Shown: positions 2,995 to 22,955 of the stretch, in pieces
How the letters are laid out: every line of letters starts with the position of its first letter
Numbering within the stretch: position 1 is the first letter of the stretch
Assembly (NCBI GenBank): GCA_017881075.1
Contig: JADGRH010000003.1
Coordinates: 128,682-192,681, forward strand
Length of the DNA: 64,000 bases
Reading direction: 5' to 3'
DNA from: Minisyncoccota bacterium
GTDB taxonomy: Bacteria; Patescibacteriota; Minisyncoccia; Phycocordibacterales; CAJBRS01
Translations under genes and position numbers: made by a program
Notes under the pieces: generated by a model
Databases searched by the model: none
What the model saw: the letters and a program-made list of their open reading frames with translations, nothing else
What the model was told of the DNA's origin: nothing

Positions 2995-4299
2995 ATGAAC
3001 ACTTTCCAAGTAATTCTCCTTTGCGTTTTTGGCGGATTCTTAGTATTGGGAGTGATGATCTTTGCCATCGGCCACTTTGGCGGTCAGACTACCACTCCGC
3101 CCATCCTGATGTGGGGCACTATTTCTAATACGGAAATGCGCAGTCTGCTGGAACAAATGGATACAATGCAAAGAGGCATTCTGAAAGTTACCTATGTTCA
3201 GAAAAATCCTGACACTTTTGATAAAGACTTTACCGAGGCAGTGGCTACGGGTGTAGGCCCGGACCTGGTTCTAGTTAGCCAAGACAATATATTAACTGAA
3301 CGAAACAAGCTCTATATTATTCCTTTTGCTACCCTTGCCGACCGCACTGTTATAGATACCTTTATTCAAGAAGCTGATCTCTTTAAAACTTCCACAGGAT
3401 ATTTAGCCCTACCTTTTATTATTGACCCGTTAGTAATGTATTGGAATCGGGATCTGTTTCAAGGAGCGGGGTTGGCTAAACCGCCGCAATACTGGGACGA
3501 ATTTAGCGGAACCGTGGCGGTTCTGAATAAGAAAGACCAAGCAGGCAACATTTTGCAAAGCGCTATTTCTTTCGGCGAATTTAGTAATGTGGCAAACGCA
3601 AAATCAATAATTTCTACCCTGATTATGCAAGCAGGTAATCCAATTACCCTAATCGGCGCGGCTGATGCCACTACTCCGGATGAAGTGACGGCAGTCTTGG
3701 ATAAAAAATTCAATGCCGTGGTGTTGCCCGCTGAAGCGGCTCTTGATTTCTATACCCAATTTGCCGATCCATCGAGCCCGGTTTTTTCCTGGAATAAATC
3801 ATTACCTCTTTCTACCAATATGTTTCTGGCTGGAAATCTTGCTACCTACTTCGGCTTTGCCAGTGAATACGCTTCACTCCAGAGTAAGAATCCCAATCTT
3901 AATTTTGATGTCGCCCCTCTACCACAGCCAAGAAGCGCCAGCGCTAAAATCACTTTCGGCAATATGCTCGGTCTCGGCATAGTGAAGAATTCGCCCAATC
4001 TTAGTGAAGCTTATCGGTCACTCCGAGTTTTGATCGGAAGTGCCCCTTTGAATATTTTATCCGGTCTGAATAATCTACCACCTACTCGGCGGGATCTTTT
4101 GGCCACGTCGACTCCCCAAAGTGCCGCCCTGACAGTCTTCAATGCTGCCGCCCTACAGTCGCGAGGATGGCTTGATCCCAATCCACAATCCACCAACACG
4201 ATATTCTCCGACATGATAGAATCTATTAAGAGTGGTAGTCGTAAAATAGGCGATGCCATTGGGGAAGCTAATGTGGAGATTCAGGGTTTAATCAAATAA
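2995..4299 (+). CDS. membrane-anchored extracellular solute-binding-like protein (hypothetical)
   Basis: N-terminal TM helix followed by a periplasmic-binding-protein-like region; no precise family match by eye. Confidence 0.35.
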   Translation: MNTFQVILLCVFGGFLVLGVMIFAIGHFGGQTTTPPILMWGTISNTEMRSLLEQMDTMQRGILKVTYVQKNPDTFDKDFTEAVATGVGPDLVLVSQDNILTERNKLYIIPFATLADRTVIDTFIQEADLFKTSTGYLALPFIIDPLVMYWNRDLFQGAGLAKPPQYWDEFSGTVAVLNKKDQAGNILQSAISFGEFSNVANAKSIISTLIMQAGNPITLIGAADATTPDEVTAVLDKKFNAVVLPAEAALDFYTQFADPSSPVFSWNKSLPLSTNMFLAGNLATYFGFASEYASLQSKNPNLNFDVAPLPQPRSASAKITFGNMLGLGIVKNSPNLSEAYRSLRVLIGSAPLNILSGLNNLPPTRRDLLATSTPQSAALTVFNAAALQSRGWLDPNPQSTNTIFSDMIESIKSGSRKIGDAIGEANVEIQGLIK

Positions 4300-16379: not shown

Positions 16380-16382
16380 CTG

Positions 16383-16465
16383 TGCGCCGAGAGGGACTCG
16401 AACCCCCGGAGGCCATAGGCCGCGACGTTTACAGCGTCGTGTAATTGCCACTATACGATCGGCGC
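16383..16465 (-). tRNA. tRNA-Tyr (GTA)
   Basis: Reverse complement gives acceptor GCGCCGA / TCGGCGC, anticodon stem CGACG/CGTCG with loop CTGTAAA, a long variable arm and T-loop TTCGAGT. Confidence 0.85.
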
Positions 16466-16509
16466 AATTTATGTAATTTAACATATAAAAATGGCCTTGA
16501 AAAGGAATA

Positions 16510-16538
16510 TTTGACATTATTTGTGATACATGTTATCC
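16510..16538 (+). promoter_or_regulatory. sigma70-like promoter
   Basis: TTGACA, 17-nt spacer, TATCCT, directly upstream of the GC-rich island. Confidence 0.45.
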
Positions 16539-16590
16539 TATACCTAGGCCATTCTGAAACCTTCAACAACCTAAACCAAGTACATTAATC

Positions 16591-16857
16591 ATGAACTCAT
16601 TCTCAAATATCATCGCCAGTTTGCGGCGCTTTCGCAACCGTAAATCGACGCTGTCAGGTGCGACAATCGGTCTGGTGCCAGCGGCACTCGCGAGTTCTAC
16701 ACCGGATCTTAAAGACCTCATCCGTCCGACCATGACTCGCGCCGCAAAGTCCGAATCCAGACACGCTTCTAGCGGCCGACAGGGTCCACAAGTGAAAAAT
16801 CGCCGCGGTCGTCGGTGCCGAATTCGTTACGAGTACGGCCGCTTCAAGGCCGCTTAA
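16591..16857 (+). CDS. hypothetical Arg-rich small protein in a GC-rich island (coding status uncertain; may be ncRNA)
   Basis: 88-aa ORF, very basic (RRFRNRKS...RRGRRCRIRYEYGRFKAA), with CG-rich codons unlike neighbouring genes; bounded by the promoter at 16510 and the terminator at 16874. Confidence 0.25.
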   Translation: MNSFSNIIASLRRFRNRKSTLSGATIGLVPAALASSTPDLKDLIRPTMTRAAKSESRHASSGRQGPQVKNRRGRRCRIRYEYGRFKAA

Positions 16858-16873
16858 TAAAGAAGTAATCAAG

Positions 16874-16916
16874 ACGCCTTTTCGTCACCCCCCGACGAAA
16901 AGGCGTTGCTTTTTTA
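16874..16916 (+). terminator. rho-independent terminator
   Basis: 13-bp stem ACGCCTTTTCGTC / GACGAAAAGGCGT followed by TGCTTTTTT. Confidence 0.75.
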
Positions 16917-16959
16917 TATACTTTATATTAAGCTGAAAACTCAACAATTTTTTAATTTC

Positions 16960-17115
16960 ATGTCACAAGATAATCTAATTGTATTGAAACATAAGGCCAC
17001 CGGAGAGGTCTATTGGACGCGCAAAAATAAACGAAAGGTGGAGCGTAAAATTGAACTGAAAAAATACAGCAAGAAGCTTCGTAAGCACGTGGTATTTAAG
17101 GAAGCCAAGAAATAA
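16960..17115 (+). CDS. rpmG: 50S ribosomal protein L33
   Basis: 51-aa [54 protein letters not shown] matches the L33 pattern (TKNKR..ELKKY.P..RKHV..KE.K); it lies inside the longer ORF 16906..17115. Confidence 0.8.
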
Positions 17116-17116
17116 T

Positions 17117-17710
17117 TTATTTTCTTCCTCTCCAATAGTGAATCACAGCTGGTAAAAAGGAGACAATTATTATCAAGATAATAATTGGCAAGAGATATCG
17201 GTCAATATTCGGAATAGTTCGGCCAAGAAAAAATCCTAGCCCACTAAGGCCGACTGTCCAAAGAAATCCTCCCACGACGTTATATCTTAAAAAATCGCTG
17301 TATTTCATCTCTCCCACTCCCGCCATGATTGGAGCGAAGGTTCGAACGATAGGCATGAAGCGGGCAAGTATCAGAGTTCTTTTGCCGTGCCTCTCAAAAA
17401 ATCTTTTTGTCTGCTCAATATATTTTTGCTTGAAGAATAAGGAATCTTGTTTGGTGAAAATTGAAGGTCCTACTTTCTTGCCAAAAGCATAGCCGACACT
17501 GTCTCCTAAAACAGCAGCTATAAAAGCGCCGACGATTAAAGCGGCGAGATTGAGCCGGCCTTCGGAGCAGAGAAGGCCGGCCGTAAAAAGCAGGGAATCG
17601 CCCGGCAAAAAGAAGCCAAAAAAAAGGCCTGATTCAGCAAAAATAACAAAATAAACCCCTAACAATCCAAAAGTTTCAATAAGAGGCAAGCTGTTCAAAA
17701 GAGCGTTCAT
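17117..17710 (-). CDS. DedA/TVP38-family membrane protein
   Basis: LPGDSLLFTAGLL signature and multiple TM helices; 197 aa. Confidence 0.75.
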   Translation of the reverse strand: MNALLNSLPLIETFGLLGVYFVIFAESGLFFGFFLPGDSLLFTAGLLCSEGRLNLAALIVGAFIAAVLGDSVGYAFGKKVGPSIFTKQDSLFFKQKYIEQTKRFFERHGKRTLILARFMPIVRTFAPIMAGVGEMKYSDFLRYNVVGGFLWTVGLSGLGFFLGRTIPNIDRYLLPIIILIIIVSFLPAVIHYWRGRK

Positions 17711-17844
17711 TGAGGGTTTATTTTAACATGAATTGAAGGCGTTTAAACCCGATTTGACTTATTTAATCTTGCATGATAAGGTTTTTTTAGAGAAAAATAC
17801 GGAAAGAAAGAACAGAAAAACACTCAATCGAAAGGAAAATCAGT

Positions 17845-18597
17845 ATGAAAAATTTTTTCACGTTCGTTACATTTACAGTTTTCAGCGTCTTGGTTACAAC
17901 TAGTAACGCGAAAGACCCCACGTCAGCAGAACTAATGGCGATCTTGCATCATCGCGCTCTCGCGCCAAAGAAAGTGGTGGGCTCTTACTCGGTCGTGACT
18001 CGTCAGTCGCAATCGACGGTTGGTAACACTTCGAACGAACCGCGTCTGGTTTATGTTCGACACAGTCAATACAAACACGACGTTAAAAAACCGGAGATCT
18101 TCCGCGGCAAAAGAGATTGGGCCTCGGCCCATGGCTTATCTTCAACCCCAGGCCTTGAACTTCAGGAAGCCACCAATAAACAAGCTGGCGCCTGTGCTGT
18201 ATCGGTCGGGAACAAAGGAGACAAGTGGATCTCTCTATCAAGCAACAAGGTTCTCGTCAATTACGATACCATTGGCACCACGGACGCTGCCACTCGCAAC
18301 AGTATCCGCATTCCCTACAAGGTAAAGGTAAGAGGACGATGGCAAACCAAGTATCGCACAGTTAGTCTCCACAAGACCCCAGAGCAGCTCCGTGCCCCAG
18401 TGGTGGACGAGGCTAAGAACAGAAAACAATCCGGTCCTGACTACGAATGGTTCCTATACGTTCCATGGAATGGTCCACGTCCGTTCCTTGCTCTGACCAA
18501 AGAGGAAAGAAGGAAGGCGCTGAAAGCGGCTGTCACCATAGGTCGGCTAGCTCAAGCCACCTTCTTCCAAAAGAATCGGATGATGGCAAAACGTTAA
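17845..18597 (+). CDS. secreted hypothetical protein
   Basis: Signal peptide; 250 aa; elevated GC relative to neighbours; terminator hairpin at approximately 18608-18645. Confidence 0.5.
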   Translation: MKNFFTFVTFTVFSVLVTTSNAKDPTSAELMAILHHRALAPKKVVGSYSVVTRQSQSTVGNTSNEPRLVYVRHSQYKHDVKKPEIFRGKRDWASAHGLSSTPGLELQEATNKQAGACAVSVGNKGDKWISLSSNKVLVNYDTIGTTDAATRNSIRIPYKVKVRGRWQTKYRTVSLHKTPEQLRAPVVDEAKNRKQSGPDYEWFLYVPWNGPRPFLALTKEERRKALKAAVTIGRLAQATFFQKNRMMAKR

Positions 18598-18712
18598 AGA
18601 CTGCGAAAAATTCGACGGCCCGCGTTATAGCACGTGCGGGCCGTTTTTTATTTTAATTTGACACTCTCCATTTTTTATGATAAAGTTATTTTAAACAAAA
18701 GGAGACCCAGAA

Positions 18713-19381
18713 ATGAAGAAAATCCTAGTGAACCTTGTCATCTGTGCCCTGTGCGTTTTAGGCCCCACCGACCTCTACGCCAAGGCTAAAAAGAAGCATT
18801 CCCCCAAACATCATCACCGACATTCTGAAACAACAGCCAACCATTCAAAACGGTCGAGGCCGCCAAAAGCCAAGAATCCGGCCAAGAAAAAGAACGATGA
18901 TTCCCAAAGGCTTTTAGCCATTAAGAAAACTAAACCTCCGCACACCCCTCCACCTCCACCTCTGGCAAAAAGAGACCCGCGAGTGGATCCAAGTATGGAA
19001 ATGGCGGCGCGAATTGGAAAAGCCAGAGCGGCACACTCCAAAAGTAAGTGTTGGAGATGGGTCAAATTTGATTTGCGAGCTTCCGGAGCTGTCAATTCGT
19101 ATCCTGACACCGGTAACGCGAAGCAAGCCGGCATTGAATTGGTTAAACACTATGGCTTTAAGGTACTTGATTGGGTGCTGAAACCGGCACTTGCTCCTAT
19201 CGGAGCTGTCCTCGTCTACGAGCAGAAAAACCGTCCAGGGCATGTAGAGATTCGGACACGAGACGGATTTGTGAGTGACTTCTGGTCCCGTTGGCCAATA
19301 ACCGACACTCATCCGGAACGCAACTACAAATTCCTCTATGCCGTGGCCCGATTGGTGCCCCGTCCTTGGAATCATAAGTGA
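18713..19381 (+). CDS. secreted CHAP-domain (Cys/His amidase/peptidase) protein with Lys/Pro/His-rich N-terminal region
   Basis: Signal peptide; candidate nucleophile Cys in SKCWRWVKFDL and a His in APIGAVLVYEQKNRPGHVEI, giving CHAP-like order and spacing; terminator hairpin after the stop. Confidence 0.5.
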   Translation: MKKILVNLVICALCVLGPTDLYAKAKKKHSPKHHHRHSETTANHSKRSRPPKAKNPAKKKNDDSQRLLAIKKTKPPHTPPPPPLAKRDPRVDPSMEMAARIGKARAAHSKSKCWRWVKFDLRASGAVNSYPDTGNAKQAGIELVKHYGFKVLDWVLKPALAPIGAVLVYEQKNRPGHVEIRTRDGFVSDFWSRWPITDTHPERNYKFLYAVARLVPRPWNHK

Positions 19382-19490
19382 GTGATAGTTTGAATGAAGT
19401 TGTGGCTCGCGCGTTTCCAATATCGCGCGGGCCACTTTTATTTATCTTTTCTTTACCACCAATTCATCTTTTACCTTTATATTATTAAGG

Positions 19491-20540
19491 ATGAATCAAT
19501 CCATTATTAATATTGTTCAGAAAATTTTGTCGGACGCCTATGAATCAAAGGCGTCCGACATCCATCTAGATCCAACCAGAAATTTACTTCGGGTCCGATT
19601 TAGAGTTGACGGACTTCTCCAAGACAGAACATTTTTTCCAAAAGATCTGTCGCCGCCGATAATTTCTCGCCTAAAAGTCTTGGCCGGTCTTCGCATGGAT
19701 GAGCACCAAAGTGACCAGGATGGACGACTTCATTTCCAAATAAAGGATGAGCGAGTGGATATTCGTATTTCCATAGTCCCAACTTATTATGGAGAGAATG
19801 CTGTCTTGCGTCTGTTACATCGTCATCATGGCACTTTGTCTTTATCTAATCTTGGATTCAACAACAAGAGCATTGAAATGATCACGGAAGCTCTTCGAAA
19901 AACATCCGGAATGATCTTAATAACTGGCCCGACTGGCTCGGGCAAAACAACTACCCTTTATACTTTATTGGAGATGCTCAAAAAAGAGGAAGGCTCGATT
20001 GTTACCATTGAAGATCCGATTGAATATGCAATTGATGGAATTGAACAGATTCAGGTAAATCAGAGAAGTTCTCTGAACTTTGCTAATGGTTTACGAGCCA
20101 TTCTTCGACAGGACCCGGACATTATTATGGTGGGCGAGATTCGTGATAGGGAAACAGCCGCCATTGCTGTTAACAGTGCTCTAACTGGCCACCTACTTCT
20201 ATCCACCCTTCACACCAATGACGCCGTCTCTGCCATTCTCAGGCTCTACGACATGGGTATTGAGCCGTATCTCATCGCCTCAACACTCTCAATAATTATT
20301 GGACAAAGATTGGTCAGAAAAATTGGCCCCGATGACAGTTTCAGTGGGCGACTGGTCATAAACGAGATATTAATTGTAGAAGAGAATCTAAGAGAGGCCA
20401 TTATCAAAAAATCCTCTCGCGCCGAAATGGAAATCTTAGCGCGTCAAAATGGCTTAATCGGAATGCGCGAAGATGGATACGAAAAAGCATCCGCCGGCCT
20501 CACCTCATCTGCCGAGGTCTTGAGAGTGACGAATCTTTAG
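19491..20540 (+). CDS. GspE/PilB-family secretion ATPase (core domain only)
   Basis: Walker A GPTGSGKTT, Asp box, Walker B DPDIIMVGEIRD, His box TLHTND; 349 aa; lacks the N1 domain and zinc motif. Confidence 0.8.
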   Translation: MNQSIINIVQKILSDAYESKASDIHLDPTRNLLRVRFRVDGLLQDRTFFPKDLSPPIISRLKVLAGLRMDEHQSDQDGRLHFQIKDERVDIRISIVPTYYGENAVLRLLHRHHGTLSLSNLGFNNKSIEMITEALRKTSGMILITGPTGSGKTTTLYTLLEMLKKEEGSIVTIEDPIEYAIDGIEQIQVNQRSSLNFANGLRAILRQDPDIIMVGEIRDRETAAIAVNSALTGHLLLSTLHTNDAVSAILRLYDMGIEPYLIASTLSIIIGQRLVRKIGPDDSFSGRLVINEILIVEENLREAIIKKSSRAEMEILARQNGLIGMREDGYEKASAGLTSSAEVLRVTNL

Positions 20541-20545
20541 AGTTG

Positions 20546-20617
20546 CGGGCCCACCCCGACTCGAACGGGGAACCTCGCGTTTGGAGTGCGATGTTTTACC
20601 ATTGAAACTATAGGCCC
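20546..20617 (-). tRNA. tRNA-Trp (CCA)
   Basis: Reverse complement gives acceptor GGGCCTA / TGGGCCC, anticodon loop CTCCAAA and T-arm CCCCG-TTCGAGT-CGGGG. Confidence 0.8.
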
Positions 20618-21517
20618 TTAATTGGCTATAATAGCAGATTTATTTAATTTTTCTATTGAACTTGACGTTAGCCACTTGATTCGTTTATCTCTCTTGAACC
20701 AGGTCATTTGACGCTTGGCGTATCGGCAATTTTCTATGTAGATTTTTTCAATCATTTCTTTTTTTGAGATTCTATTTTGAAGATATTGGGCAACGTATTT
20801 GTATTCCATACCCAGCTCATTCATTCTTTTCCAAGAGAGTCCGCCGCGATGAAGTTTTCTAGCTTCATTTATCATTCCTTTTTTTAATCTTTGAGAGAGG
20901 CGCTTTTTAATTCTTTTATTCAATTCTCCGTCCGGAACTCTGATACCAATTTGAATGGCGTTGTATTTAGAATTACTTTTCACTATTGGCACTTTGCCGA
21001 GCGCGATAGCAATTTCAATAGCCCGAATGAGCCGGCGCGGATTTTCTCTCTCAATGGTGCCGGCCCTTTTCGGATCTAATTTTTTCAATATGGCAAAAAG
21101 TTGTGAAACAGACTTTTGTTTCAATTTGTTTCTAAGTTTCAGATTCGGCGCGACCGATGGGGGAACGAACCCATCAACAATTGCTTGAATATAATATCCA
21201 GTGCCACCACAAATTATCGGTAATTTTTTCTTGTCAATGATTTTATCAATAGCTTTCTCGGTCAGTTCTCTGTATTGATCGACAGAAAACCATTCTTGTG
21301 GGCGTGTCACATCCAAAAGATGATGTGGCACGCCCCTCATTTCCCGCTTTGTAATTTTTCCTGTCCCAATATCCAATCCTTTATATACCTGCCTTGAATC
21401 CGCTGAAACCACCTCGCCATTAAATTTTTTAGCCAGTTTTACCGCCAACTCACTTTTACCCGAGGAAGTTGGTCCGAGAATTACTAGAATGTGTCTCATC
21501 ATGCCTAAGTTTGCCAT
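20618..21517 (-). CDS. miaA: tRNA dimethylallyltransferase
   Basis: P-loop GPTSSGKS then SADSRQVYKGLDIGTGK, typical of MiaA; true start may be one of the internal Met codons a few residues in. Confidence 0.9.
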   Translation of the reverse strand: MANLGMMRHILVILGPTSSGKSELAVKLAKKFNGEVVSADSRQVYKGLDIGTGKITKREMRGVPHHLLDVTRPQEWFSVDQYRELTEKAIDKIIDKKKLPIICGGTGYYIQAIVDGFVPPSVAPNLKLRNKLKQKSVSQLFAILKKLDPKRAGTIERENPRRLIRAIEIAIALGKVPIVKSNSKYNAIQIGIRVPDGELNKRIKKRLSQRLKKGMINEARKLHRGGLSWKRMNELGMEYKYVAQYLQNRISKKEMIEKIYIENCRYAKRQMTWFKRDKRIKWLTSSSIEKLNKSAIIAN

Positions 21518-21572
21518 TACGAGAGAATAAAATCCATAACAGATTCCATTGATTGACAGAGTTGTTTTATGA

Positions 21573-22112
21573 ATGTATTATATCTGGCAGATTCAAAGTA
21601 GCCCAAACCCAAACCGAAAGAAACCGAAAGCAAACCCTATGTTCAATCGCATTCTTGCAACCTTGTTACTACTCACCACTCTTCACCTTGCTTCTGCCGA
21701 CGATCGTCCGAAGACTTGGTATGAGAAGGGGTACGAAGGACCCGAAATCATCACTCTTTCCGATGCCATCCGCGCAGAGAAAGCCTTTCTTGGGCCCAAT
21801 AATCGGGCTTGGAGTATGAGGGGCGACACCAAAGTATGTGCGGCTCTCGAGGCAGTCAAACTGCCTTGTGACTACAATACGCGATGTGTCTTGTCGCATT
21901 TCCTCACACTCAACGGCAAAGGGCTTTTCCCGGCGTCGGGTCGGACCAACCCATATTTTTCCGAACATCGACCTGACGACGGCTTTCCGGATGATTATTT
22001 CATCGGCCAGTCAGCACAGAACGCTATGCTCGCCGCAGCAATACGGCGGAACGCAAAGTTGTTTGTTAACGGTGACATTACAGCGAAGTCGGTGAGAGAA
22101 AATTGGCGGTAA
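21573..22112 (+). CDS. secreted hypothetical protein
   Basis: Likely true start at MFNRILATLLLLTTLHLASA (a signal peptide); Cys-containing; GC-elevated; terminator hairpin at approximately 22124-22175. Confidence 0.45.
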   Translation: MYYIWQIQSSPNPNRKKPKANPMFNRILATLLLLTTLHLASADDRPKTWYEKGYEGPEIITLSDAIRAEKAFLGPNNRAWSMRGDTKVCAALEAVKLPCDYNTRCVLSHFLTLNGKGLFPASGRTNPYFSEHRPDDGFPDDYFIGQSAQNAMLAAAIRRNAKLFVNGDITAKSVRENWR

Positions 22113-22197
22113 GTACATCATTTGCCCTGCACCACAAGAAGAGCCTTGGCTCGACTAGGTGCAGGGTCCTTTTATTTTCTTGATTTATAACGATATT

Positions 22198-22767
22198 TTA
22201 TCCTTTGATTAATTTTAACAATGATATAAAATCTTCTACTCTGTGGGAAACTCTAATAATATATTTTGGAGTCTTTGTTGTTGAGATTTTATAGACATGA
22301 GCTTTGAAGCCAAGGTTTTTTATCATACTCATTACATCCAATGCCAGGCGCTCTATAATTGTTGTGAAATTTACCATGTTGTAGCCTCTATCGAAATATA
22401 TACAACCATCAGTTTGAAATAAACCTCGTAAACATTCAATTGAATAAATCTCATTTTCTTTTATCCATCTAGGAACCGTCACATCCTGTTTAAATTTGGA
22501 ACCCTCCTTTGCTTTCCATCCAAGAAGATTTTCAAGGTGATTTGAATAACAGGAGACATCAAGGCAATTTTCACCCCGCTTAATAGTAGATATTTGATTG
22601 TTAGGAAACAGCTCTTTTAAAGATTTTATTATTGTATTTATTAGATTAGGATATTTTAAATCGCAACTAATCCTGAGTCTCACGGCTCGTCCATTCGAGT
22701 TGGAAAGATTGCCATCGCCGATAGCCAAGCCAATTACATATGCCTGTAGTCTTCGGTTAGGGCTTAT
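22198..22767 (-). CDS. LAGLIDADG homing endonuclease (free-standing, abutting tRNA-Leu; start codon uncertain)
   Basis: Two LAGLIDADG motifs, LAIGDGNL and LFQTDGCIY. The ORF-track start at 22848 lies inside the tRNA gene. No ATG or GTG occurs between the tRNA 3' end (22770) and motif 1; the only in-frame candidate is TTG at 22728. Confidence 0.8.
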   Translation of the reverse strand: MSPNRRLQAYVIGLAIGDGNLSNSNGRAVRLRISCDLKYPNLINTIIKSLKELFPNNQISTIKRGENCLDVSCYSNHLENLLGWKAKEGSKFKQDVTVPRWIKENEIYSIECLRGLFQTDGCIYFDRGYNMVNFTTIIERLALDVMSMIKNLGFKAHVYKISTTKTPKYIIRVSHRVEDFISLLKLIKG

Positions 22768-22769
22768 CT

Positions 22770-22854
22770 TGGTGCCAGAGGTGGGACTTGAACCCACAAG
22801 CCTTGCGGCACGCGATTTTGAGTCGCGCATGTTTGCCAATTTCATCACTCTGGC
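22770..22854 (-). tRNA. tRNA-Leu (CAA), CCA encoded
   Basis: Reverse complement gives acceptor GCCAGAG / CTCTGGC, anticodon stem CGCGA/TCGCG with loop CTCAAAA, a long variable arm, T-arm GTGGG-TTCAAGT-CCCAC and a CCA tail. Confidence 0.85.
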
Positions 22855-22955
22855 AGAGTATCATAAGTCTAATGAAATTTCGATAAAAATCAATTAAAAT
22901 TTATGTTAAAATGACTTTATGGACTTTAATACTTTTAACTTTATAGACTATTAAC

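Follow-up and report, generated by a model that had tools for sequence, protein, structure and literature searches.

Introduction

LAGLIDADG homing endonucleases make site-specific double-strand cuts at sites of ~20 bp, leaving 4-nt 3' overhangs. Some free-standing mitochondrial endonuclease genes (e.g., that of Allomyces atp6) bring along a duplicate of their host gene's 3' end, and mitochondria make translatable leaderless mRNAs by tRNA processing. Among systems described next to tRNA genes, SegB of phage T4 is a free-standing GIY-YIG homing endonuclease encoded in the phage tRNA gene cluster; its recognition motif is the T-psi-C stem-loop of tRNA genes, and through co-conversion it causes its own gene and neighbouring tRNA genes to be inherited preferentially (PMC2330249). 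In collaborative (trans) homing, a free-standing endonuclease acts with an intron in a nearby gene, as described for F-CphI beside an intron-bearing cyanophage psbA and for T4 mobE with I-TevIII (PMC3984707; PMC2790892). In the full texts searched, LAGLIDADG endonucleases of Patescibacteria (the candidate phyla radiation, CPR) are discussed only within insertions or introns of 16S and 23S rRNA (PMC11270868, PMC11809585, PMC7143001), and one of these papers nowhere mentions tRNA (PMC11270868). Here we analyse a stretch of 64,000 nucleotides (64 kb; the window) from a Minisyncoccota bacterium (GCA_017881075.1, contig JADGRH010000003.1, positions 128,682 to 192,681), in which an open reading frame (ORF) for a LAGLIDADG homing endonuclease abuts the 3' end of a tRNA-Leu(CAA) gene.

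The reading that we favour, and consider probable, is that this ORF belongs to a family of free-standing, I-DmoI-like LAGLIDADG homing endonucleases whose home is the 3' flank of tRNA-Leu(CAA) in Patescibacteria and which are co-transcribed with that tRNA. Bacterial chromosomal LAGLIDADG genes that stand free and keep to a single tRNA gene seem not to have been described as a family before; the open-access literature searched describes no tRNA-linked free-standing LAGLIDADG family, an absence that is in itself no proof of novelty. Its novelty lies in four points: the bacteria that host it, the class of enzyme, the strict link with a single tRNA species and a start codon that abuts the tRNA. 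Positions below follow the numbering within the window, related loci are labelled L001-L156, and public proteins P0001 onwards.

Results

A LAGLIDADG family paired with tRNA-Leu(CAA)

A word-indexed search returned 479 homologous proteins of ~190 aa at 54-68% identity, almost all of them from metagenome-assembled genomes of Patescibacteria. The family is tight, with 27 clusters at E < 1e-30 in an exhaustive search among 50%-identity representatives, and the nearest LAGLIDADG proteins outside it are only 30-40% identical. A phage origin was considered and rejected, viral contigs carrying distant relatives only (at most 34% identity over long alignments). A scan of one genome per species yielded 221 confirmed loci, 80 of which were fetched (proteins 50-68% identical, a sample biased to high-scoring loci). 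A tRNA-Leu gene lies directly upstream on the same strand in ~67 of these 80 loci, ~77 of them evaluable, and its anticodon, as called by ARAGORN, is always CAA. Because the same tRNA species is found upstream in ~67 of ~77 evaluable species genomes, the juxtaposition is far beyond chance; the loci that depart from it are listed in Table 1. Invasion next to a tRNA gene had been proposed for the window alone in the original prediction, a reading of the letters only. The free-standing endonuclease stands, not as a single event but as one member of a large family bound to tRNA-Leu(CAA), whose members would insert into or replace the tRNA.

Two loci are detached from the tRNA, L024 and L039, and in both (at ~2900-2990 in each) a conserved block resembling TTGAAA-N16-TAAAAT precedes the ORF, as if these copies had acquired a promoter of their own. 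L024 also has no canonical start codon.

The window locus and its predicted protein

The double-motif LAGLIDADG ORF that had been placed directly after the CCA of tRNA-Leu(CAA), on the same strand, was borne out by ARAGORN, Rfam and Pfam, and the tRNA proved as intact and uninterrupted as it had seemed. It matched the Rfam tRNA model from end to end (1-71) with 56.6 bits, the gathering score being 29. The discriminator A lies at 22773 and the encoded CCA at 22772-22770. At Rfam gathering thresholds the entire window held tRNAs only, with no match to an intron family or group I, and the locus has no intein either. A split or intron-containing tRNA, as expected of an ordinary intronic endonuclease, occurs in a distant relative (L016, below) and not in the window. 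Between the CCA and the ORF there are 2 nt (AG), followed by an in-frame ATA.

By its motifs, profile match, predicted fold and acidic residues, the ORF is predicted to encode a monomeric, double-motif LAGLIDADG homing endonuclease. The Pfam LAGLIDADG_3 profile (PF14528) matches at 50 bits (cut-off 22.5, E = 3.6e-13). An AlphaFold2 model built with a 71-sequence alignment (mean pLDDT 95.9, pTM 0.92) has two alpha-beta-beta-alpha-beta-beta-alpha halves, i.e., the predicted pseudo-dimeric LAGLIDADG fold. In a Foldseek comparison of this model with the Protein Data Bank (PDB), I-DmoI ranked highest (TM-score 0.68-0.74), the endonuclease domains of PI-SceI and PI-PfuI came next, and the matches to I-DmoI, PI-SceI, PI-PfuI and I-AniI all had probability 1.00; a profile search of PDB sequences found no relative at E <= 0.01. 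All 71 family sequences aligned, that of the window among them, have the catalytic aspartates D18 and D120, and likewise G17, G19 and T119; the window copy keeps 28 of 28 family-invariant residues. In close pairs dN/dS is 0.05-0.10, and for the window against L002 pN is 0.20 and pS 0.82 (saturated). Because the catalytic aspartates are invariant and selection is purifying, the family encodes a functional, and probably catalytic, protein.

A WhiA-type regulator was rejected as an identity for the window protein, which has 189 aa (vs. ~300 aa), no helix-turn-helix (HTH) domain and both catalytic aspartates, and which scores below the cut-offs of both WhiA profiles (WhiA_N 18.9 vs. 23.4; LAGLIDADG_WhiA 22.1 vs. 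23.2). Two family members, L023 (~3519-3560) and L046 (~3558-3640), have their C-terminal segment in another frame or past a stop codon and are either sequencing errors or early pseudogenes, the latter being what a decay phase of homing predicts.

Empty sites and a foreign tRNA allele

The four closest relatives of the window by ParB (L153-L156, 77-88% identical) have tRNA-Leu(CAA) beside parB, with miaA also present there in L153-L155, and contain no homologue of the endonuclease at tblastn E <= 1e-3. A further locus, L093, is syntenic over topA-parB-tRNA-Leu-tRNA-Arg-miaA-tRNA-Trp and has no endonuclease gene either. Presence and absence are thus polymorphic at one syntenic locus, the gene being present in the window and L002 and absent from L153-L156 and L093. 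This comparison with relatives that lack the endonuclease, suggested along with the original prediction as a way to define the insertion point and any target-site duplication, provided the empty sites, and it also brought up repeats of the tRNA 3' end in some relatives, though none in the window. The clade formed by the window, L002, L153, L154 and L155 has ParB proteins 84-92% identical, and its two carriers, the window and L002, are not sister taxa.

Within this clade the presence of the endonuclease is linked, as far as the sequences tell, to a foreign tRNA allele. The tRNAs of the two carriers are identical at 81 of 82 positions, and the carrier allele agrees with the one found in the three non-carriers at no more than 56-57 of 84 positions (67%). 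Upstream, the promoter region is homologous in carriers and sisters right up to the tRNA 5' end, and therefore the replaced segment starts at or in the tRNA. A chimeric tRNA-Leu(CAA) is found in L156 (3139-3223): its positions 8-46 are those of the non-carrier allele and its positions 47-85 are identical to the window allele, with the breakpoint at the junction of anticodon stem and variable arm, the same place at which a tRNA remnant begins in L040.

A metagenome scan with the 41-nt core of the window tRNA recovered 12 loci, one of which has the endonuclease gene. The gene is absent both from L082, whose tRNA is identical to that of the window through the CCA, and from L093, whose tRNA is identical up to the discriminator and first C.

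Two side observations concern the non-carriers. In L154, the last 19 nt of the tRNA (3354-3437, minus strand) recur without a mismatch 125 nt downstream of it. L154 and L156 share, downstream of the tRNA, a conserved element of ~50 nt with an inverted copy of their own T-arm, which may mark a lost element or encode a small RNA.

Displaced tRNA ends and split tRNAs in relatives

Several family members are followed by what appears to be a second tRNA 3' end. The clearest case is L040, where 38 nt corresponding to tRNA positions 48-85 lie directly after the endonuclease stop codon (z = 12.9). The T-stem of this remnant pairs as GTGGG/CCCAC and that of the functional tRNA as GAGGG/CCCTC; since the two stems are compensated differently, the remnant is taken as the relic of a different, once-functional allele. 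In L018, 15 of 15 nt match the tRNA 3' end downstream of the gene, and weaker copies of a tRNA end finishing in ...GGCAC are found in L003, L064, L081, L036, L062, L079 and others. Across the family, non-tRNA matches of a hidden Markov model (HMM) of the tRNA 3' end are ~8-fold enriched in the 120 nt past the gene; 8 of 64 downstream segments, compared with 13 of 596 controls, agree with the tRNA end of the same locus at 9 or more of 12 nt; and a whole-tRNA HMM scores >=4 bits in 5 of 78 downstream segments (that of L055 probably being a genuine tRNA-Met) and in none of 416 controls. Because displaced tRNA 3' remnants occur and a foreign tRNA allele is linked to the endonuclease gene, the elements would seem to insert into or replace tRNA-Leu(CAA), not merely to land beside it.

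Interrupted tRNA genes were seen at two loci. At L056 (2730-2987) the endonuclease-proximal tRNA-Leu(CAA) is split in the anticodon loop into halves 2730-2764 and 2940-2987, and the 175-nt insert holds another, intact tRNA-Leu(CAA) of different sequence (2803-2886). At L016 (2414-2733, minus strand), in a high-GC genome, the two parts of the tRNA-Leu(CAA) are separated at the anticodon loop by a stably folding insert of 234 nt (z = -2.4), a probable group I intron by its sequence (Rfam Intron_gpI 17 bits, E = 0.045 in a small search, below the gathering score of 50). This split tRNA was missed by ARAGORN and Rfam at default thresholds, and the family member at L016 lies ~180 nt away on the other strand, outside the intron. 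A further resemblance is suggestive only: TTAA/AATCGCG in L022 and L059 resembles CTCAAAATCGCG, as if the stop codon had come from the anticodon.

Start codons and expression

Junctions between tRNA and ORF were analysed in 66 fetched genomes and the window. An ATG (47) or TTG (12) lies 2-24 nt past the discriminator in 59 of these 67 junctions, most commonly at a spacing of 2 nt (18 loci, ...GGCA-C-ATG, with one base between discriminator and start), and the full CCA is encoded in 13 of 67 only. Such junctions leave space for neither a promoter nor a Shine-Dalgarno sequence. A canonical start near the junction is lacking in L031, L064, L070 and L077 as well as in the window, and the sole ATG of L002 is the codon just before helix 1. 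Non-canonical initiation, raised in the original prediction, may thus apply to the window copy and does not extend to the family as a rule.

In the window itself, the absence of ATG and GTG between tRNA and first motif was confirmed by the sequence: from the CCA to motif 1 the sole in-frame ATG, GTG or TTG is the TTG at 22728-22726. This TTG lies within the first motif helix, and a complete protein could therefore not be obtained from it; the ATG at 22739-22737 is out of frame, with a TAA directly after it. In an alignment with homologues (A1), window residues ISPNRRLQAY stand opposite MKNSKDNLAY and MEKDSNNLAY, so that the in-frame ATA occupies the place of their initiator Met, and in the simplest reading it is probably a former ATG that has mutated. 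It is no obvious assembly error, because a contig spanning the junction in the Logan assembly of run SRR10489828, made with another assembler, shows no difference from the window sequence in 2200 of 2200 bases.

The endonuclease frame is open back through the window tRNA, as had been noted, with GTG at 22848, ATG at 22845 (tRNA position 10) and ATG at 22830 (position 25). This turned out to be incidental: the frame through the tRNA is open in 29 of 59 loci with a normal start, all three ORF:tRNA phases are seen among family members, and loci without a nearby start do not differ significantly from the others in how often the frame is open (Fisher p = 0.16). An open frame is uninformative because it is frequent in normal-start loci and occurs in all three phases, and because all phases occur the family protein would not be read through the tRNA. 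The public annotation P0001 (210 aa, MRDSKS...), which starts inside the tRNA, thus most likely reflects an error of the gene caller; P0001, P0002, P0014, P0022 and P0035 all begin with 20-45 aa translated from tRNA sequence.

Upstream of the window tRNA, a promoter-like block stops 11 nt short of its 5' end (Table 1). It falls below the threshold of a consensus promoter scanner, and the pattern TTGATT-N16-TAnAnT is kept at the same place in L153, L154 and L156, all without the endonuclease gene; sister genomes that carry the gene have it too. This block, TTGATT-N16-TAGACT in the window, is likely the shared promoter of tRNA and endonuclease. Between tRNA and ORF a consensus scan found no promoter or Shine-Dalgarno sequence, the gap being only 2 nt. 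Co-transcription with the tRNA, as originally proposed, was supported in that the gap to the CCA is 2 nt and the sole conserved promoter-like block lies upstream of the tRNA; for this reason it would be the only reasonable expression route for the window endonuclease, as judged from the anatomy of the locus. In L153, which has no endonuclease gene, the miaA ATG occupies the same position behind the same tRNA (ggcac/ATG), and since miaA uses the identical layout, a start that abuts the tRNA is evidently workable for expression in these organisms. No other tRNA of the window has a gene start abutting it in this way.

Other features of the locus

The endonuclease gene has a GC content of 34% against 43% in the flank. 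The locus has no integrase and its sole cargo is the 570-bp endonuclease ORF, which sets it apart from tRNA-targeting integrative islands. Between this ORF and miaA, the plus strand carries orfX (21573-22112), an ORF of 179 aa followed by a hairpin and a T-run, with no Pfam match, a GC content of 50% (vs. 43% for the window) and no homologue in any related locus; it looks like a lineage-specific insertion. The inverted repeat between the two convergent ORFs (Table 1), on which a terminator scan made no call, probably terminates orfX, because the T-run follows on the plus strand only, and it may also stop the tRNA-endonuclease transcript.

MiaA substrates are tRNAs that read U-starting codons. 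At 16382-22854 of the window, miaA (20618-21517, minus strand) lies among genes for tRNA-Leu(CAA), tRNA-Trp and tRNA-Tyr, presumed MiaA substrates, and the tRNA-Trp 5' end abuts the miaA stop at 20617/20618. In L153 (3322-3437) the miaA ATG stands directly behind the discriminator-plus-C of tRNA-Leu(CAA), and the miaA of L093 may be placed likewise behind tRNA-Arg.

Table 1. Coordinates of features at the window locus, followed by the fetched family loci that depart from the common arrangement of tRNA and gene.
Feature	Positions	Strand	Basis or remark
tRNA-Leu(CAA), intact, CCA encoded	22770-22854	minus	ARAGORN; Rfam tRNA 56.6 bits
LAGLIDADG homing endonuclease ORF (predicted), 189 codons + TAA stop 22200-22198	22198-22767	minus	Pfam, homologues, AlphaFold2, Foldseek
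LAGLIDADG motif 1 LAIGDGNL, residues 14-21; catalytic Asp18 codon 22716-22714	22705-22728	minus	alignment
LAGLIDADG motif 2 LFQTDGCIY, residues 116-124; catalytic Asp120 codon 22410-22408	22396-22422	minus	alignment
In-frame ATA at the position of the homologues' initiator Met	22765-22767	minus	alignment A1
ATG within the tRNA (tRNA positions 25-27), start of public annotation P0001	22828-22830	minus	
Promoter-like block TTGATT (22893-22888), 16-nt spacer, TAGACT (22871-22866)	22866-22893	minus	conserved in sisters
G+C-rich inverted repeat CCCTGCACC ... GGTGCAGGG, between endonuclease ORF and convergent orfX	22125-22166		read from sequence
Loci L006, L036			contig end cuts the locus; tRNA 3' end visible at the edge
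Loci L026, L053, L080			contig end cuts the locus; no upstream sequence
Loci L012, L016			tRNA-Leu(CAA) adjoins in divergent orientation
Locus L028			tRNA-Leu(CAA) adjoins in convergent orientation
Locus L024			tRNA-Leu(CAA) 2.9 kb upstream
Loci L039, L073, L075			tRNA-Leu(CAA) not found nearby

Discussion

A proposed cycle of expression, homing and replacement

The favoured reading implies a simple cycle. The endonuclease gene would be transcribed from the tRNA promoter as a tRNA-mRNA precursor, because the gene has neither a promoter nor a Shine-Dalgarno sequence of its own. Processing of the tRNA 3' end would then free an mRNA with a leader of 0-20 nt, to be translated in a leaderless-like manner, and an RNase Z-type cut after the discriminator is the likely route because most members encode C74 only and not CCA. 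Copies of tRNA-Leu(CAA) with no endonuclease gene beside them would be cut by the enzyme, the break probably falling within or close to the 3' half of the tRNA, and recombinational repair from the carrier copy would transfer the gene with part or all of the adjoining tRNA co-converted, as in intronless homing. Where downstream homology is missing, the join would fall inside the resident tRNA, and its 3' part would be left behind as a decaying remnant. CPR cells take up DNA, and dprA neighbours the locus both in the closest carrier genome (L001/L002) and in the sister L154.

A bolder version, which we put forward only tentatively, is that the unit of tRNA-Leu(CAA) and LAGLIDADG gene acts as a CPR chromosomal gene drive that overwrites resident alleles and is expressed by a bacterial form of "tRNA punctuation," in which maturation of the tRNA 3' end yields a leaderless or nearly leaderless mRNA with its start codon 1-20 nt past the discriminator; miaA in sister genomes would be expressed likewise, and the AUA start of the window copy would throttle a potentially toxic nuclease.

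Evidence that tempers mobility

A number of observations weigh against the favoured reading, in whole or in part. Neither the window nor L002 has a tRNA remnant downstream of the gene (as searched with a generic tRNA HMM and the sister-clade allele), and the window copy has no canonical start codon. The cleavage activity and target site of the family are predictions, and co-transcription, RNase Z processing and leaderless translation are read from the anatomy of the loci. Although the endonuclease gene has a lower GC content than its flank in 74 of 75 loci, its GC tracks that of the host (r = 0.87, slope 0.85), and since it follows the host so closely, residence in each lineage would be long; together with a dN/dS as low as that of housekeeping genes, it also fits vertical residence or a host function. 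Across 45 loci, tRNA and endonuclease identity are not correlated (Mantel rho 0.07, p = 0.14), and both track ParB weakly (0.18-0.19). Endonuclease identity plateaus at ~55% where ParB is 35-50% identical and tracks ParB at shallow depth only (Spearman 0.16), a plateau that could reflect either horizontal spread or site-rate heterogeneity. Finally, a target wholly inside the tRNA would make the carrier's own tRNA a target and leave its immunity unexplained.

Two simpler formulations were discarded on these grounds. A fixed tRNA-plus-endonuclease cassette as the general unit of transfer does not agree with distances that are uncorrelated globally, and hence the tRNA would not always be co-transferred. 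Immunity through polymorphism of the tRNA sequence does not agree with the tRNAs identical to that of the window in L082 and L093: because identical tRNAs occur with and without the gene, immunity cannot rest on tRNA sequence alone.

Alternative explanations

The alternative that survives best concerns the window copy only. It is possible that this copy is a dead relic, in which ATG became ATA, translation was lost and the frame is still intact because the event was recent. The want of any in-frame ATG, GTG or TTG ahead of motif 1 and the alignment of the ATA with the Met of homologues speak for it, and so does early decay elsewhere in the family (a C-terminal frameshift or stop in L023 and L046, a lost start in L024), which fits a cycle of invasion, decay and loss. 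All 28 invariant residues are nevertheless intact over 189 codons, and pN is far below pS against L002 (0.20 vs. 0.82). Moreover, start-less but intact copies (the window, L031, L064, L070, L077) exceed frame-disrupted ones by five to two among the fetched loci, which, in a sample biased to high-scoring loci, points the opposite way from what mutational target size would lead one to expect if start loss were the first lethal hit. Weak translation from AUA, which a nuclease may tolerate or even favour, and very recent inactivation are weighted about equally for this copy.

A domesticated LAGLIDADG protein, with a host function tied to the unit of tRNA-Leu(CAA) and miaA (as a DNA- or RNA-binding regulator or maturase-like factor), mostly vertical inheritance and absences that are losses, is an unlikely account of the family. 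It would readily accommodate the dN/dS of 0.05-0.10, the GC content that follows the host (r = 0.87), the single copy per locus, the 58-93% identity of endonucleases in pairs whose ParB proteins are at least 70% identical, and the operon-like place between tRNA and miaA in L002, L067, L071 and L076; some members are also labelled WhiA by JGI, although the WhiA Pfam scores are below cut-off and an HTH domain is missing. Against these stand four closest relatives that have no such gene at this locus, its absence from 11 of the 12 same-core loci, a confirmed match in only 221 species-level genomes of the collection, two invariant catalytic aspartates that a pure binding protein would not need, and the tRNA remnants and allele replacement, which point to insertion events.

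We give still less credence to passive spread, in which homologous recombination after DNA uptake, with the tRNA (sometimes also the remnant) as homology arms, would carry along a gene whose product has some other role or none. Direct repeats of the tRNA 3' end do flank some copies, and the exact 19-nt repeat of L154, the chimeric tRNA of L156 and dprA beside the L001/L002 and L154 loci could all be read in this sense. Purifying selection and invariant catalytic residues, however, need a selective agent, and a useless passenger gene would decay; the strict pairing with one tRNA species, kept in three other-oriented loci (L012, L016, L028), is typical of linkage between an endonuclease and its target.

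Translation from the ATG at 22845 or 22830 inside the tRNA, on an unprocessed precursor, would give the protein a tRNA-encoded extension of 21-26 aa (as in P0001), and we regard it as highly improbable. The window frame is open with in-frame ATGs at tRNA positions 10 and 25, and in six of the eight loci that have no nearby start, among them the window, L002, L064 and L077, the frame crosses the entire tRNA without a stop. These four same-phase, start-less loci have nearly the same tRNA, however, and may not be independent; the frame is also open in many normal-start loci (29 of 59, Fisher p = 0.16) and all three phases occur, both ATGs fall within the stably folded tRNA, in its D-arm and anticodon stem, and homologues with a clear ATG have 8-15 residues before helix 1.

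An ordinary intron-encoded endonuclease in a split tRNA gene, of which the probable group I intron of the tRNA-Leu(CAA) beside L016 and the tRNA of L056 split in the anticodon loop might remind one, is refuted for the window, where the tRNA is complete, Rfam finds no intron and no tRNA half lies downstream of the ORF (generic tRNA HMM, sister allele), and even at L016 the intron does not contain the ORF, which lies on the opposite strand.

Implications

If the favoured reading holds, the window clade offers a case of tRNA allele replacement among close relatives that is linked to a selfish gene and could explain the mosaic tRNA genes found there. The family, together with the miaA of L153, makes bacterial production of leaderless mRNA by tRNA processing directly testable. 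Its members are compact, well-folding candidate meganuclease scaffolds, with targets that are probably conserved tRNA-gene sequences. As a warning for annotation, gene callers systematically run the ORFs of this family through the upstream tRNA.

Comparison with known systems

By predicted fold, the nearest relative is I-DmoI, which shares the length of ~190 aa, the two motifs in one chain and the acidic residue ending each motif (PDB 2vs8, 1b24); the sequence identity is only 18-21%, and I-DmoI is encoded in an intron (of archaeal 23S rRNA) and targets rDNA. The endonucleases of CPR rRNA insertions have the same hosts, belong to the same superfamily and are thought to home into conserved RNA genes (PMC11270868; PMC11809585), but they lie inside 16S or 23S insertions, whereas the present family lies outside any intron, beside a tRNA. 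Collaborative homing resembles the arrangement at L016, a free-standing endonuclease beside a target gene with a probable ORF-less group I intron (a weak match, 17 bits vs. 50), and differs in that the tRNA is uninterrupted in the window and in ~90% of the family.

The Allomyces atp6 case parallels L040, L018, L064 and others in its order of functional copy, endonuclease ORF and displaced, decaying 3' end. It involves an in-frame fusion to a protein-coding organelle gene, in contrast to a bacterial chromosomal tRNA gene here, and the window has no such remnant. That a bacterial tRNA gene can serve as a homing target is shown by an intron-encoded endonuclease of another enzyme family in another tRNA.

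The closest characterised analogue is T4 SegB, likewise a free-standing endonuclease gene among tRNA genes. SegB is a GIY-YIG enzyme of a phage and acts in co-infection; the present family consists of LAGLIDADG proteins encoded on CPR chromosomes, each bound to one tRNA species with a start codon abutting that tRNA, and its homing activity is predicted from sequence.

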